A stretch of 32,000 bases of DNA from Candidatus Heimdallarchaeota archaeon (lineage in GTDB: Archaea; Asgardarchaeota; Heimdallarchaeia; Heimdallarchaeales; Heimdallarchaeaceae), in assembly GCA_030668875.1 (NCBI GenBank), contig DAOVER010000016.1, forward strand, positions 1 to 32,000, read 5' to 3'. A model generated the notes under the pieces. The model saw nothing but the letters and a program-made list of their open reading frames with translations. It made no database searches and was not told where the DNA came from. A program made the position numbers and the translations under genes. Positions 10,369-14,653 of this stretch are shown piece by piece. How positions within the stretch are numbered: the first letter of the stretch is position 1; each line of letters begins with the position of its first letter.

Positions 10369-10866
10369 GTGAAAGAAATTAGTTACGGTAATGAAAGAGG
10401 ACAAAGCAGAGGAAGAGGGCAAGGCGGAGGAAGGGGACAAGGTGGACGGGGGCAAGGTGGTGGAGGCGGTCCAGGGGGTGGACGGGGGCAAGGTGGTGGA
10501 ATTGGGATGGGAGCTAGAGGTTGGTGTAGATGTCCTGTTTGTGGGAATAGAGTTGCTCATTTACGTGGAGTTACTTGTTTTCAGATGAAGTGCACTTCCT
10601 GTGGATCTGGTATGATGAGGGAAGTGGGAAACCAAGGTTTTGATCAACAGATCCCACCAATAGATTCATATACTAATCAGCAGAAATTTCCAGAAATCGG
10701 AAAACCAGTTGTTAATGAAGCAAAGTGTATTGGGTGTTCCACTTGCATAACGAGTTGCCCATTTCATGCAATATCTATGGAAAATGGTAAAGCTCATATT
10801 AAAGAAAATATGTGTAGAGGGTGTCGTGAGTGTGTATCAGCTTGTCCTCAAGGAGCGATATTTTAA
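10369..10866 (+). CDS. Gly/Arg-rich N-terminus + Cys/His zinc-ribbon + 2x[4Fe-4S] ferredoxin fusion
   Basis: (G)RGQGG repeats; CRCPVCG..H..G..CFQMKCTSCG; then CIGCSTCITSCP and CRGCRECVSACP. Confidence 0.8.
   Translation: MKEISYGNERGQSRGRGQGGGRGQGGRGQGGGGGPGGGRGQGGGIGMGARGWCRCPVCGNRVAHLRGVTCFQMKCTSCGSGMMREVGNQGFDQQIPPIDSYTNQQKFPEIGKPVVNEAKCIGCSTCITSCPFHAISMENGKAHIKENMCRGCRECVSACPQGAIF
10441..10500 (+). repeat. Two identical 24-bp direct repeats within the Gly-rich coding segment
   Basis: GGTGGACGGGGGCAAGGTGGTGGA at 10441-10464 and 10477-10500. Confidence 0.9.
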
Positions 10867-10929: not shown

Positions 10930-11790
10930 TCATATTCCTGATTTTGCTTGTAAAAACAATTCGGAGTTATTCCAATGACTATGATAATTATTGAAGAATT
11001 TTTTCAAAACTTGTTTACCAAACAATTTAACTTGAGATTCATAACATTCCAATGCTTCAATTTTGAGATTTTCATATCCTTTAATAGAGTTAGTCTTTAG
11101 CTCCCAATCAATATCAAGATATTTTGCAGGAAGTAGTTTCTCAATTGTTCCTCCGGAAATCATTGAATTCATAATTGATGTGATTATGAAGAGTTTAAAG
11201 CTAGACCTCTCTGGTTTTTTTGTTCCTATAGTTACTAATCTGTTACCTAAGTAATGTTTTCTTCGAATTTTTGTGCTAATCATTCCATAGAAATCTACAT
11301 AGAAAAGAAATTTATCGAAGATCGCATAATCAATCATGTACTTCAAGGATGCAAGAAACACTTCAACATGGTCATAATGATTGCCTATTGCTAGTGGAGC
11401 GTAAAATTTCACTTTTGGATATTTCTCAATAAGTTTATCTATTTCAGCTTGAATCTTGGTGATGTTCGAGAACTGTTCCAAGCCCTTAGAGAGATTAATC
11501 TTGAAAATGTCGGTAGGTTTCCTAAGTAAAGGATCTCTATAGGCTCTTTCTTCTATATCCAACCATTTGTAATCAACACTTAATCGATTGAGAGCTTTTT
11601 GGTCTTCCTTCTTTCTTTGATCATAAATAGCAAATTTGTGAAGCTTTTTAGGAATCTTCTTGATATCAGGATTTTTTGTGAAGACTGATACAACTAGAAC
11701 ATCTTCTCTCTGATATACGTGTTTAGCAATTGTTCCTCCGCAGCTGACTACAGCATCATCTAAGTGGGGAGAGAGAAAAATGTGTTGCAT
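10930..11790 (-). CDS. PIG-L/LmbE family deacetylase
   Basis: FLSPHLDDAVVSCGG, RKKEDQKAL, GNHYDH (HxDD and HxDH metal motifs), and CYESQ. Confidence 0.88.
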   Translation of the reverse strand: MQHIFLSPHLDDAVVSCGGTIAKHVYQREDVLVVSVFTKNPDIKKIPKKLHKFAIYDQRKKEDQKALNRLSVDYKWLDIEERAYRDPLLRKPTDIFKINLSKGLEQFSNITKIQAEIDKLIEKYPKVKFYAPLAIGNHYDHVEVFLASLKYMIDYAIFDKFLFYVDFYGMISTKIRRKHYLGNRLVTIGTKKPERSSFKLFIITSIMNSMISGGTIEKLLPAKYLDIDWELKTNSIKGYENLKIEALECYESQVKLFGKQVLKKFFNNYHSHWNNSELFLQAKSGI

Positions 11791-12004
11791 AAAAATAATA
11801 AATCATCAAAATTAATAAAGCTTATTCTCCTTGGTTTTCATTATCCTTGCTTTTGTGTTTTCTATATTAGTTGGTGTTTATGTTTATAACAAACCATCTA
11901 TAACAATTATGTTTTATTTATAAGTATCTGTGAACGTTTTTAATTATAATCTATTCGTTAAACTCACCCCAAACATTATATTAGGGTCACCGAATTTCGA
12001 CTAA

Positions 12005-12012
12005 TTTAAATA
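12005..12012 (+). promoter_or_regulatory. Candidate TATA box of the NuoBCDI-like operon
   Basis: TTTAAATA lies about 50 nt upstream of the probable ATG at 12064. Confidence 0.4.
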
Positions 12013-12054
12013 AAAGCGATATTGCGTTATAATAGTTGACTTACAAATTTTATT

Positions 12055-12495
12055 GTGATTGCTATGATTACAAAGAAAAAAGTGATGAAAAAATTCGTTA
12101 AAGCTATTTGGGTATTTAATTGGTTCAATTCATGTGGCTTTTCGGAATTGATCCCAGTTGTAGGTTCTAGATGGGATATGGAACGTTTTGGTTTAGTTGC
12201 GGTGAATTCTCCGAGGAAAGCAGATGCTTTGTTTATAGCAGGATATCAAACACCTAAATCAATGAAAAGAGCTCAACAGATATATGAACAAATGCCAAGT
12301 CCGAAATTTGTTTTCGCAATGGGCTCTTGCACTATGACAGGAGGAATGTATTGGGATTCTTATAACACTGTGAAACGAATAGAAGATTATGTTCCCGTTT
12401 TTATGTATATACCAGGTTGTCCCCCAAGACCTGAAGCTATTTTTGATGCAGTACATAAAGTTGTGGTGCATGTTGATGAGTTGCCAGATGAGTGA
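12055..12495 (+). CDS. nuoB: NuoB/MbsJ(MbxJ)-like Fe-S small subunit
   Basis: RWDMERFG, SPRKADAL, MGSC..TGG.YWDSYN, PGCPPRPEA. Only three Cys (27, 92, 122). Probable start is ATG 12064. Confidence 0.88.
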   Translation: MIAMITKKKVMKKFVKAIWVFNWFNSCGFSELIPVVGSRWDMERFGLVAVNSPRKADALFIAGYQTPKSMKRAQQIYEQMPSPKFVFAMGSCTMTGGMYWDSYNTVKRIEDYVPVFMYIPGCPPRPEAIFDAVHKVVVHVDELPDE

Positions 12496-13040
12496 TAAAG
12501 ATGAGTGAAAAAAGTAAACATGATAAGAATCAAACAATTGAAGAAAAGCTAATCGAAGATTTAAAATCGAAATTAGGCACTACGGTTAATTATCAAAAGG
12601 AGAGAAGGTTATGGATGACAATTGATCCTGATCTAATAGTCGAAACATGTACTAAAGCATATGAATTGGGTTTTGAACATCTTTCAACCATCTCTGTTAC
12701 AGATTGGCTAAAAGAGGGAAAGCATGAGGTGACATATCATCTGTGGTCTTATACTCATAATCATTTACTAACAATAAAAACAAAAATTGACAGAAAAAGC
12801 CCTAAAATTTCCTCAATAAACTCAATTTGGGGTGGTAATGCAGAAACATGCGAACGTGAGTGTCATGAGCTATTTGGAGTAAAATTCGAAGGTAATCCTA
12901 ATTTAACGCCACTATTTCTTGAAGATTGGGATGGTCCTCCACCATTTTTGAAGGATTTCAATTGGCGAGAATTTGTTAAGAAGGAAATGTATGACCAGAA
13001 TAATCCAAGAGAAAAAGTGTACTTTGAGGTGAAAAAATGA
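12492..13040 (+). CDS. nuoC: NuoC/MbsK(MbxK)-like 30-kDa subunit
   Basis: HLSTISVTDW, YHLWS, ERECHELFGVKFEGNP, PPFLKDF. Probable start is ATG 12501. Confidence 0.88.
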   Translation: MIKMSEKSKHDKNQTIEEKLIEDLKSKLGTTVNYQKERRLWMTIDPDLIVETCTKAYELGFEHLSTISVTDWLKEGKHEVTYHLWSYTHNHLLTIKTKIDRKSPKISSINSIWGGNAETCERECHELFGVKFEGNPNLTPLFLEDWDGPPPFLKDFNWREFVKKEMYDQNNPREKVYFEVKK

Positions 13041-14155
13041 CTAAGACAAATGAAAATGAAGTTAATAGTGACTTCACTATGAACTTTGGTCCTGCTCATC
13101 CAGGATCAGGAAATTTTGCAATAAAAGTAGAGATGCGTGGAGAACGAGTACTTAAAGCAACTGCAGATCCAGGCTATTTGCACCGCGGGTTTGAAAAATT
13201 GATGGAATACAGGGAACCGATGCAAAACTCTGTTATGTCAGATAGAGTGTGTGTTCTGGAACCTTTGCAATGGAACTTGGTTCATGCTGAAGCAGTTGAT
13301 TATCTTATGGGTTATGAAATACCTGAGAGAGCAAAGTATATCCGAGTGATACTTGCTGAACTTTCTAGAATTCAGTCACATTTCATCTGGTATGCTGTAC
13401 TTTCTTTAGGAACAGGTTTTATGACTGGTTTTAATATCTCTATAGGGTACCGAGATTATATTCTAGATGTTCTAAACCTTATTACTGGTGGAAGAGTATA
13501 TCCGGCAGGTTACATATGTCCTGGAGGGGTTAGAAAAGATTTTCCTGAGAATGCTGAAAATAAGATTCTTGAACTTCTTCCAAAAATTGATTATATGAGA
13601 AAGTTTGCATTAAAAGAGAATCCAGCTTGGCTAGCACGTTTCAAAGATGTTGGAGTATTAACAAAAGAAGAAGCTATTAAGTTTGGAGCAACTGGACCAG
13701 TACTACGTGGAAGTGGTGTTGCTGCAGATGTTAGAAGAGATGATCCATACGAGATTTATGATGAACTAGAATTCAATATTCCAGTTCTGGATAAAGGAGA
13801 TGCTTATTCCCGCTTCAAAGTTGGTATGCTGGAAATAGAAGAGAGTATGAAGATAATCACTCAAGCTATTGATAGATTACCTAAAGGAGAAGTTAGAACA
13901 CCTAACCTCAAACCTATAGTGAAATTTCAAAAAGCTGAAGGAGAGATCTATATCCGTAATGAACTTTCTCGAGGAGAAGGTGCTTTTTACATGGTTGCTA
14001 CTGGTCAGAAAACACCTTATAGAGTGAAAATTCGTGGACCTTCTTTTACCCATATGATTCCGATAGTTGAACATCTATTAACAGATGTAGATTATGCTGA
14101 TGTTCCAGCAATTTATTGGAGCTTGTATCAGTGTCCAGCGGATGTAGACAGGTGA
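13037..14155 (+). CDS. nuoD: NuoD/MbsL(MbxL)-like 49-kDa catalytic subunit, not a [NiFe] large subunit
   Basis: NFGPAHP, GYLHRGFEK, DRVCVLEP, ELSRIQSH, GPVLRGSG, PYRVKIRGPSF, and C-terminal YQCPADVDR. Confidence 0.9.
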   Translation: MTKTNENEVNSDFTMNFGPAHPGSGNFAIKVEMRGERVLKATADPGYLHRGFEKLMEYREPMQNSVMSDRVCVLEPLQWNLVHAEAVDYLMGYEIPERAKYIRVILAELSRIQSHFIWYAVLSLGTGFMTGFNISIGYRDYILDVLNLITGGRVYPAGYICPGGVRKDFPENAENKILELLPKIDYMRKFALKENPAWLARFKDVGVLTKEEAIKFGATGPVLRGSGVAADVRRDDPYEIYDELEFNIPVLDKGDAYSRFKVGMLEIEESMKIITQAIDRLPKGEVRTPNLKPIVKFQKAEGEIYIRNELSRGEGAFYMVATGQKTPYRVKIRGPSFTHMIPIVEHLLTDVDYADVPAIYWSLYQCPADVDR

Positions 14156-14156
14156 G

Positions 14157-14540
14157 ATGATAAAAATGAAGTTAGGTATAATTAAAGAAGTGTTCAAGAA
14201 TGTCTTCACTAAACCAATGACAGTACTTTTTCCTTTTGAAAAAATTGAGATTCCAGAGAGGAATAGAGGAGAACATAGTTTTAACATTGATACATGTATT
14301 TCATGTGGAGCTTGCGCTAGAATCTGCCCGAATCTAGCAATAGAAATGATAGAAGCACCTCAGGAATTAAAGAAGGAGTACCCAAAAACCTATCCACAGA
14401 TAGATCTTGGTAAATGTTGTTTTTGTGCATTATGTGAAGATACATGTCCAAAAGGGTCGATTAAGTTAACAACTAATGTTTTCTTGGCCACCTTTGATAA
14501 AGATGACACAGTGAGAAGTCCTATGTCATGGAATAAGTGA
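14157..14540 (+). CDS. nuoI: NuoI/MbsN(MbxN)-like 2x[4Fe-4S] subunit
   Basis: KPMTVLFPFEK, RGEH, CISCGACARICP, CCFCALCEDTCP. Confidence 0.9.
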   Translation: MIKMKLGIIKEVFKNVFTKPMTVLFPFEKIEIPERNRGEHSFNIDTCISCGACARICPNLAIEMIEAPQELKKEYPKTYPQIDLGKCCFCALCEDTCPKGSIKLTTNVFLATFDKDDTVRSPMSWNK

Positions 14541-14545
14541 AGATG

Positions 14546-14574
14546 TCCTCCTTCCTTATTCCTCCTCTTTTTTT
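14546..14574 (+). terminator. Pyrimidine-rich / oligo-T archaeal-type terminator candidate
   Basis: TCCTCCTTCCTTATTCCTCCTC followed by a T7 run (14568-14574), just after the NuoI-like stop. Confidence 0.45.
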
Positions 14575-14653
14575 AATGATAAATTGATTAAGGTGAGTGC
14601 TTGTTCTACTAAGGTGACAAGAAGACAAATGAACATCATAAAGCGTAAAACAT

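Follow-up and report, generated by a model that had tools for sequence, protein, structure and literature searches.

A four-gene cassette of the MbsJKLN lineage without a dedicated membrane arm in a Heimdallarchaeaceae genome

The cassette and its four products

We analyzed a 32-kb stretch of DNA (hereafter, the window) from a Candidatus Heimdallarchaeota archaeon of the family Heimdallarchaeaceae (contig DAOVER010000016.1, positions 1 to 32,000). Its forward strand carries at positions 12055–14540 four packed open reading frames (ORFs) whose products are homologues of NuoB/MbsJ, NuoC/MbsK, NuoD/MbsL and NuoI/MbsN (Table 1). The four subunits belong to the lineage of MbsJKLN, the head of MBS, the membrane-bound reductase of sulfane sulfur from Pyrococcus furiosus, and the cassette very probably encodes an Mbs/Mbx-type head that lacks a membrane arm. 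The ORFs overlap by 4 nt at the first two junctions and are 1 nt apart at the third, in agreement with a preliminary description of the same DNA, made from its letters alone, that had reported four overlapping or abutting genes at these coordinates. NCBIfam models name the products NuoB, NuoC, NuoD and NuoI, and the Pfam and NCBIfam E-values range from about 1e-22 to 1e-109. The small-subunit gene probably starts at the ATG at 12064, because its orthologues begin with MITKKK. No match to NuoH, A, J, K, L or N was detected among all ORFs of at least 50 amino acids in the window. The absence of a NuoH/MbsM or antiporter subunit, noted earlier for the operon, therefore extends across the full 32 kb.

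The large subunit has its top match in the PDB in MbsL (6u8y_L, 281 bits), followed by Thermus Nqo4 (229 bits) and the hydrogenase subunit MbhL (151 bits). Its RVC72VLE motif aligns to RIC85VPE of MbsL and its C366PADVDR motif to C385PPDIDR. These alignments bear out the preliminary reading that only two of the four cysteines of [NiFe] hydrogenases are kept, namely C72 and C366, the first cysteine of each motif. The same motifs recur as DR[VIL]C[VI]LEP and CPAD[VM]DR throughout the subclade that contains the protein (clade A, described below). The signature of group 4 [NiFe] hydrogenases (RxCGxC and DPCxxC, with CxxC in the small subunit) is not found in the cassette head. The histidine of the quinone site (Nqo4 H38) is deleted and the tyrosine (Nqo4 Y87) is replaced by Val73, a position occupied by Val or Ile in clade A. 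A Ni-Fe site and a quinone site are thus both missing from the large subunit. The FGPAHPGSGNF sequence of the β1–β2 loop is invariant.

The small subunit aligns without gaps to its top PDB match, MbsJ (6u8y_J, 137 bits), and has cysteines only at positions 27, 92 and 122, matching C28, C93 and C123 of MbsJ; a phenylalanine takes the place of the non-ligand MbsJ C25. The tandem cysteine pair of NuoB-type subunits for cluster N2, present as CC in E. coli NuoB, is replaced by Ser26-Cys27. The small subunit of the hydrogenase resident in the same genome reads GCNGCDIE (CxxC) in a loop four residues longer than that of the cassette protein. The position three residues after C27 is variable in clade A, where it is Ser, Thr, Ala or Ile and in some members Cys; with no cysteine there, the Heimdall small subunits cannot supply a fourth one. 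The proximal [4Fe-4S] cluster is predicted to have only three cysteine ligands, in a shortened loop of MbsJ length. In MBS, the MbsJ cluster is held by C28, C93 and C123 only, because the ligand loop is shortened by three residues compared to that of the membrane-bound hydrogenase, MBH (PMC7684303). Catalysis has been assigned to this site-differentiated proximal cluster, and the two cysteines retained in MbsL can be mutated without loss of activity (PMC7684303). The three-cysteine cluster is therefore a stronger MBS signature than the two large-subunit cysteines stressed in the preliminary description, which had the pattern right but picked a feature that is dispensable in MBS. The electron wire consists of this cluster in the B/J subunit and of two [4Fe-4S] motifs in the I/N subunit, which has two complete CxxCxxCxxxCP sequences for the distal and medial clusters as well as a conserved N-terminal amphipathic segment.

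Phylogenetic placement and flanking genes

The phylogeny of the large subunit was anchored with MbsL and MbhL from Thermococcus, NuoCD and HycE from E. coli, the Fpo-like D subunit of Methanomassiliicoccales, bacterial NuoD proteins from operons of the order B-C-D-H-I-...-L-M-N, and the [NiFe] large subunit of the same genome. Anchor labels follow the organism or the operon context, and Thermococcus MbsL orthologues stand in for P. furiosus. The tree separates an Mbs/Mbx superclade that includes the Thermococcales MbsL (support 100/96) from a clade of NuoD and Fpo-like D proteins (96/93). The cassette protein falls within the former, in a subclade that we designated clade A (100/99), and the best tree uniting clade A with NuoD/Fpo was rejected in an approximately unbiased (AU) test (p = 0.003). 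Hence, the grouping with true NuoD or FpoD that would have overturned the preliminary reading did not materialize. The NuoD equivalog model NF004739 scores 364.7 bits against a cutoff of 360, but evidently catches Mbx-type proteins too; TIGR01962 and the FpoD model are far under their cutoffs.

Two side observations concern the reference proteins. The Fpo-like D subunit of Methanomassiliicoccales (L050, 1–978) keeps both vestigial cysteines together with the tyrosine of the quinone site (DRLCY, MCLGETDR), so that Mbs-type proteins cannot be told from Fpo-like ones by the two-cysteine pattern alone. A NuoD of bacterial type, encoded on a contig of only 1.3 kb in a Thermococcus metagenome-assembled genome (L102; G005 contig 96), is probably a binning contaminant.

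Upstream of the cassette, the promoter region that it has in common with a divergent PIG-L gene contains two TATA-like words, TTTAAATA at 12005 and TTATAATA at 12028. The divergent gene and the downstream oligo-T tract of the preliminary description were both recovered, the latter as a pyrimidine-rich segment with a T7 run; its TATA box corresponds to words that are present but statistically insignificant alone in DNA of 32% GC. Beyond the PIG-L gene lies a gene for a Gly/Arg-rich protein with a ferredoxin domain. Three further Heimdall genomes have orthologues (48–53% identity) that adjoin the cassette, with three different gene layouts among them, and it is possible that the protein is a non-obligatory electron-carrier partner of the head. 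An obligatory partnership was rejected, as only 4 of the 11 cassette-bearing genomes have the gene. The public sequencing runs that contain the locus are DNA from marine sediment and cold seeps; there is no RNA run among those listed.

Table 1. Features of the cassette and its flanks (window coordinates).
Feature	Position	Strand	Description
Gly/Arg-rich protein	10369–10866	+	165 aa; 4-Cys zinc-ribbon-like motif and C-terminal 2x[4Fe-4S] ferredoxin domain
Divergent PIG-L gene	10930–11790	-	Upstream neighbor of the cassette
Intergenic promoter region	11791–12054	+	AT-rich 264-nt spacer common to the cassette and the PIG-L gene
Small subunit, NuoB/MbsJ-like	12055–12495	+	146 aa; Pfam PF01058 Oxidored_q6, 4e-22
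Scaffold subunit, NuoC/MbsK-like	12492–13040	+	182 aa; Pfam PF00329 Complex1_30kDa, 4e-28; clade-wide alignment
Large subunit, NuoD/MbsL-like	13037–14155	+	372 aa; Pfam Complex1_49kDa, 6e-67
Ferredoxin-type subunit, NuoI/MbsN-like	14157–14540	+	127 aa; Pfam 2x[4Fe-4S] Fer4; NCBIfam NuoI TIGR01971, 2e-27
Likely archaeal terminator	14541–14580	+	Pyrimidine-rich, T7 run at its end (~14567–14575)

Membrane arms and heads in the genome and its relatives

The genome (3.23 Mb, 92% complete) has a single NuoH. The gene lies on contig 15, directly after hypE-hypF, in a headless NuoH-A-J-K-L-N operon (L010, 10063–15601). The same contig carries about 19.5 kb away a group 4 [NiFe] head of the order C-L-I-B (L009, 5809–8582), which adjoins hypD. 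The large subunit of this head has MbhL as its top match and all four Ni-Fe cysteines (RACGIC and DPCFSC). The preliminary description had left room for an unpartnered NuoH elsewhere in the genome. The one NuoH is indeed in an operon without a head, but, being syntenic with a true [NiFe] head, it cannot simply be regarded as lacking a partner. The count is the same in Ca. Heimdallarchaeum endolithica, whose genome is finished: NuoH occurs once and antiporter-like genes twice, each of them within the arm at 2.475–2.481 Mb, and there are two heads in total, a [NiFe] head 1.5 kb past the arm on the opposite strand and an Mbs-type head 1.8 Mb off. This agreement indicates that the missing dedicated arm is real rather than an assembly gap. 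Neither the genome nor its finished relative encodes a dedicated anchor or antiporter for the Mbs-type head.

Two other gene clusters came to light in this survey. On contig 27 (L011, 6574–12604, minus strand), two unknown genes precede a NuoJ-K-L-N-like cluster that is highly divergent; of its proteins, the last alone matches Pfam PF00361, with a weak score. We rejected it as the missing arm, because the 19 other genomes of the genus all have it irrespective of the cassette and both finished Ca. Heimdallarchaeum genomes, which carry the cassette, lack it. Ca. Heimdallarchaeum aukensis (G002, 2.762–2.771 Mb; L061/L070) encodes a third large-subunit homologue with the motifs ERSCF and VCPADLDR, followed directly by NuoH and four antiporter-like genes; this longer complex is absent from the genome of the window.

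Within the Heimdallarchaeaceae, 11 of 26 genomes of at least 80% completeness have the cassette. About one NuoH is present in 25 of the 26, and the [NiFe] head is near-universal. Wherever both are on one contig, the arm lies 7–20 kb from the [NiFe] head, with or without the cassette. The cassette is absent from the other families of Heimdallarchaeia and from all other Asgard genomes (267 searched, at least 85% complete). It is therefore accessory and was probably acquired. Among the Asgard archaea, the head is confined to one family, in which NuoH is universal.

Clade A relatives whose large subunits are 57–63% identical to the cassette protein come in two architectures, membrane-linked operons and bare B-C-D-I cassettes. 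The membrane-linked operons are genome-predicted Mbx-type systems that have identical catalytic motifs and, unlike the cassette, carry NuoK-like, antiporter-like and NuoH-like genes beside B-C-D-I. Their order is K-N-H-B-C-D-I in Aciduliprofundum, Desulfurococcales and an uncultured archaeon, and K-N-B-C-D-I-H in Altiarchaeales, Desulfobacterales and Dehalococcoidales. In Dehalococcoidales (L030, 3055–12936; also L031–L033), one NuoK/antiporter pair is followed by two tandem heads: an Mbs-type head (B-C-D-I-H) comes first, then a complete [NiFe]-type head (B-C-L-H-I), and both have a NuoH of their own. A further unit, of the five genes NuoH-B-C-D-I, has no antiporter genes within 7 kb upstream (L223, 7810–11516); anchor and head alone resemble the proposed ancestral respiratory complex, albeit with a Ni-free head.

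The bare cassettes form two clades in the tree. One unites the Heimdall cassettes with close relatives (100/100) and the other has seven members (100/99) from Thermoplasmata, Dehalococcoidia, Atribacterota and unassigned contigs. In the seven-member clade, the cassette adjoins genes of thiol and disulfide metabolism, among them those for thioredoxin, a pyridine-nucleotide disulfide oxidoreductase and a protein of the metallo-beta-lactamase fold. In at least three contigs of other lineages (L012, 7629–13825; L133, 3185–9403; and the contig of P0082), which are from Thermoplasmata and unassigned sediment contigs, B-C-D-I is directly followed by genes for heterodisulfide reductase (Hdr) subunits, namely HdrA with a fused MvhD/FlpD domain, HdrC and HdrB. 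HdrA-like genes are also near the head in two further contigs. The Mbs-type head has in these operons the place that MvhAG has in methanogens.

One NuoH was counted in 10 of the 11 Heimdall cassette genomes and in seven of the eight other stand-alone-head genomes checked, the exception being a 0.7-Mb fragment with none, and a separate, semi-detached case (L035) has two; the counts cover genomes other than those behind L014, L016 and L223. In four of the bare-cassette genomes outside Heimdall, the sole NuoH lies within a complete Mbh-type operon with its own head. One Thermoplasmatales genome mirrors the Heimdall layout, with a headless K-N-H arm and two armless heads elsewhere, one of them Mbs-type and the other assigned to the hydrogenase type by length and score only.

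A shared arm or a free enzyme

As a tentative overall reading, we propose that the four genes, an accessory and horizontally mobile unit, encode the cytoplasmic J-K-L-N head of a sulfane-sulfur reductase of the Mbx/MBS type. Reduced ferredoxin would feed electrons to the I subunit, from which they would travel to the open iron of the proximal cluster. There, as in Pyrococcus MBS, the head would cleave an S-S bond, be it that of a polysulfide, a disulfide or an organic persulfide. Judged from homology and the three-cysteine cluster motif, the head on balance probably does carry out sulfur-sulfur bond chemistry; the MBS homologue is only ~45% identical. In the version that we prefer, the head would not float free but would dock on the single NuoH-A-J-K-L-N arm of contig 15, presumed to be the arm of the nearby [NiFe] head. 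One ion-translocating arm would thereby serve two exchangeable heads, and the cell could use sulfur in place of protons as the sink for its ferredoxin. Such docking is a realistic possibility that falls somewhat short of being probable. We hold equally cautiously the broader proposal that in the Heimdallarchaeaceae one complex-I-like arm serves a resident, H2-making [NiFe] head and an acquired, Ni-free, sulfane-sulfur-reducing one from separate operons, so that a swap of heads, and not the construction of a second complex, would rewire respiration. The same plug-in cassette would have reached Thermoplasmata, Dehalococcoidia and Atribacterota, hosts that each own a single hydrogenase arm.

The sequences of the subunits are consistent with docking. 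Stand-alone and membrane-linked clade A subunits are collinear, with no indels in any of the four, and the N-terminal helices or amphipathic segments of B and I are conserved along with the β1–β2 loop. In both stand-alone clades, conservation at the modeled NuoH-contact positions does not fall below that of the remaining protein. In the Heimdall B subunit, the NuoH-facing part has diverged further from membrane-linked relatives than the protein overall (0.55 against 0.69; permutation p = 0.024, from 25 model-defined columns). The B contact loop is nonetheless fixed in the Heimdall clade, as NSPRKAD versus TPRHAD in membrane-linked relatives. Divergence combined with fixation is as expected after a change of anchor. 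Convergence of this loop on that of the resident hydrogenase small subunit was not seen (NSPRKAD vs. GTPRQAD). A close outgroup (P0017, 68% identical) encodes NuoH-B-C-D-I, while the other relatives at 66–74% identity are stand-alone. Its NuoH groups with the NuoH of the Heimdall arm in the complex-I-type clade (92/72; enclosing node 97/88), a join that involves two long branches, and its small subunit has the complex-I-like PRQAD version of the contact loop. The combination suggests that the Heimdall-side subclade may have switched anchor type before or during its entry into the Heimdallarchaeaceae. Complex modeling of D and B with the Heimdall NuoH scored 0.76 versus 0.56 for the best control, with contacts agreeing by at least 95% between runs and a partner pLDDT (predicted local distance difference test) of at least 76. 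Of 80 solved complexes, 58 attained this mark, as did 2 of 110 mismatched pairs; even so, the pass may stem only from likeness to the solved structures of complex I and MBS. The count of one NuoH in most genomes with a stand-alone head also fits docking, as does the Thermoplasmatales genome with its headless arm and two armless heads.

Several points weigh against a shared arm. The arm is never near the cassette in genomes of the family and is present regardless of it. Given its patchy spread and its absence from other Asgard families, the cassette is probably not native to an arm that evolved together with the hydrogenase head. Membrane-linked operons of clade A have Mbh-type anchors and the Heimdall NuoH is complex-I-type, although the NuoH of P0017 groups with the latter. 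The test of B divergence has 25 model-defined columns, and the P0017 grouping joins two long branches. The co-occurrence of stand-alone heads with NuoH lacks a baseline and may mirror the commonness of arms in such anaerobes. We know of no precedent for two heads on one NuoH. In other lineages, the neighbors of the cassette are genes of cytoplasmic thiol and disulfide metabolism (thioredoxin, pyridine-nucleotide disulfide oxidoreductase, HdrACB). Furthermore, engineered soluble MBS heads are active without an arm (PMC7684303), and naturally split MBH heads of Thermoprofundales are reported to be so (PMC9585477).

Several of these points favor a free cytoplasmic enzyme, that is, a soluble ferredoxin:sulfane-sulfur (polysulfide or persulfide) or ferredoxin:disulfide reductase that would get rid of reducing equivalents and pump no ions. 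It would be a natural counterpart of C-MBS, the engineered soluble subcomplex that is catalytically active without the arm (PMC7684303). The reported activity of the split MbhJKLN head alone (PMC9585477) fits this explanation, as does an accessory, probably transferred cassette that is never syntenic with the arm. So do the bare four-gene units of the seven-member clade in Thermoplasmata, Dehalococcoidia and Atribacterota, with their thiol and disulfide gene neighbors, and the four non-Heimdall genomes whose sole NuoH already belongs to a complete Mbh-type operon. Yet the membrane-facing elements are not relaxed in either stand-alone clade, the β1–β2 coupling loop is invariant, and none of the reasonably complete genomes checked has the head without a NuoH. 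Uncoupled ferredoxin oxidation would also waste ~190 mV (our estimate from standard potentials) in an energy-starved sediment organism. A free enzyme of this kind is thus plausible but somewhat doubtful. With the Hdr-linked variant included, a head free in the cytoplasm becomes a possibility to be taken seriously, without being the expected outcome.

In the Hdr-linked variant, the head would be the electron-input or -output module of a heterodisulfide-reductase-type (Hdr/Flx-linked) complex and replace the MvhAG of MvhAGD-HdrABC. The operons of other lineages in which HdrA, HdrC and HdrB directly follow B-C-D-I, and the two contigs with HdrA-like genes nearby, point in this direction. However, no Hdr genes lie within 10 kb at any of ~10 Heimdall loci and the Hdr-linked forms fall in the other stand-alone clade, which makes this role improbable for the Heimdall head. 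Least credible of all, and very nearly untenable, is an ordinary complex I/Fpo Q module (NuoBCDI), with quinone or a methanophenazine-like carrier as its electron acceptor and with genes that were merely split from their operon: the NuoD equivalog score just above cutoff and the public annotation of relatives as NuoD suggest it, but the tree and AU test, the deleted quinone histidine, the valine in place of tyrosine, the small subunit without a tandem cysteine pair and the Mbx gene order (B-C-D-I without H) speak against it.

Among known systems, P. furiosus MBS (formerly MBX, PDB 6U8Y) is one of the closest to the cassette. MbsJKLN has the same four subunits in the same J-K-L-N order and, in common with the cassette, two vestigial Ni-Fe cysteines, a shortened small-subunit loop with three cysteines and no quinone residues. 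MBS differs in its MbsM anchor and Mrp-type subunits (MbsA-H'), which the cassette lacks in its operon and the genome lacks as a dedicated set. The cassette is also in a well supported sister clade (clade A) rather than in the Thermococcales clade, and its host is a mesophilic Asgard archaeon. The Q module of complex I/Fpo has a homologous fold and a three-cluster wire and lends the genes their public NuoBCDI names, but belongs to another clade; the cassette has neither its quinone His/Tyr nor its tandem-Cys ligation of N2, and no NuoH between D and I.

Other split or co-resident systems offer partial parallels. In subgroup E of Thermoprofundales, the JKLN head of a split MBH is encoded apart from the arm and reported to be active alone, an arrangement called unique to that lineage (Mol Biol Evol 2022, PMC9585477). 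The Thermoprofundales head is, however, a genuine [NiFe] hydrogenase, whereas the cassette head is Ni-free, Mbs-type and accompanied by a second, hydrogenase head. The complex-I-like group 4 [NiFe] hydrogenases of Heimdallarchaeia, whose NuoBCDI-type head has been described as an active hydrogenase (bioRxiv 10.1101/2024.07.04.601786), are from the same organisms and have the same short H-A-J-K-L-N arm, the only docking site that the cassette head would have. The searched passages of that preprint make no mention of a second, Ni-free Mbs-type head. Our literature search retrieved no description of an armless Mbs-type head, although the literature on Ehr complexes was obscured by an identical medical acronym. 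The tree and the genome search support, in hedged form, the preliminary reading of a sulfane- or disulfide-reductase-like head that is either soluble or docked on an arm encoded elsewhere, with the function predicted from sequence.

MBS is regarded as the evolutionary intermediate that links membrane-bound hydrogenases to complex I and, to our knowledge, has been studied only in hyperthermophiles. At this locus, the catalytic head of MBS takes the form of a horizontally mobile cassette that is complete in itself. The host is from the Heimdallarchaeia, the Asgard class to which the closest archaeal relatives of eukaryotes known so far belong. The public annotation of the cassette genes as subunits of NADH-quinone oxidoreductase is misleading. 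If soluble, the head would be a natural minimal enzyme for testing S-S cleavage by a bare three-cysteine iron-sulfur cluster. If it docks, a single complex-I-type arm would for the first time be seen to serve two heads, and the modular origin of respiratory complexes would become directly testable. Either way, the bioenergetics of Heimdallarchaeia in sulfidic sediments would gain a sulfur sink beside H2 production.

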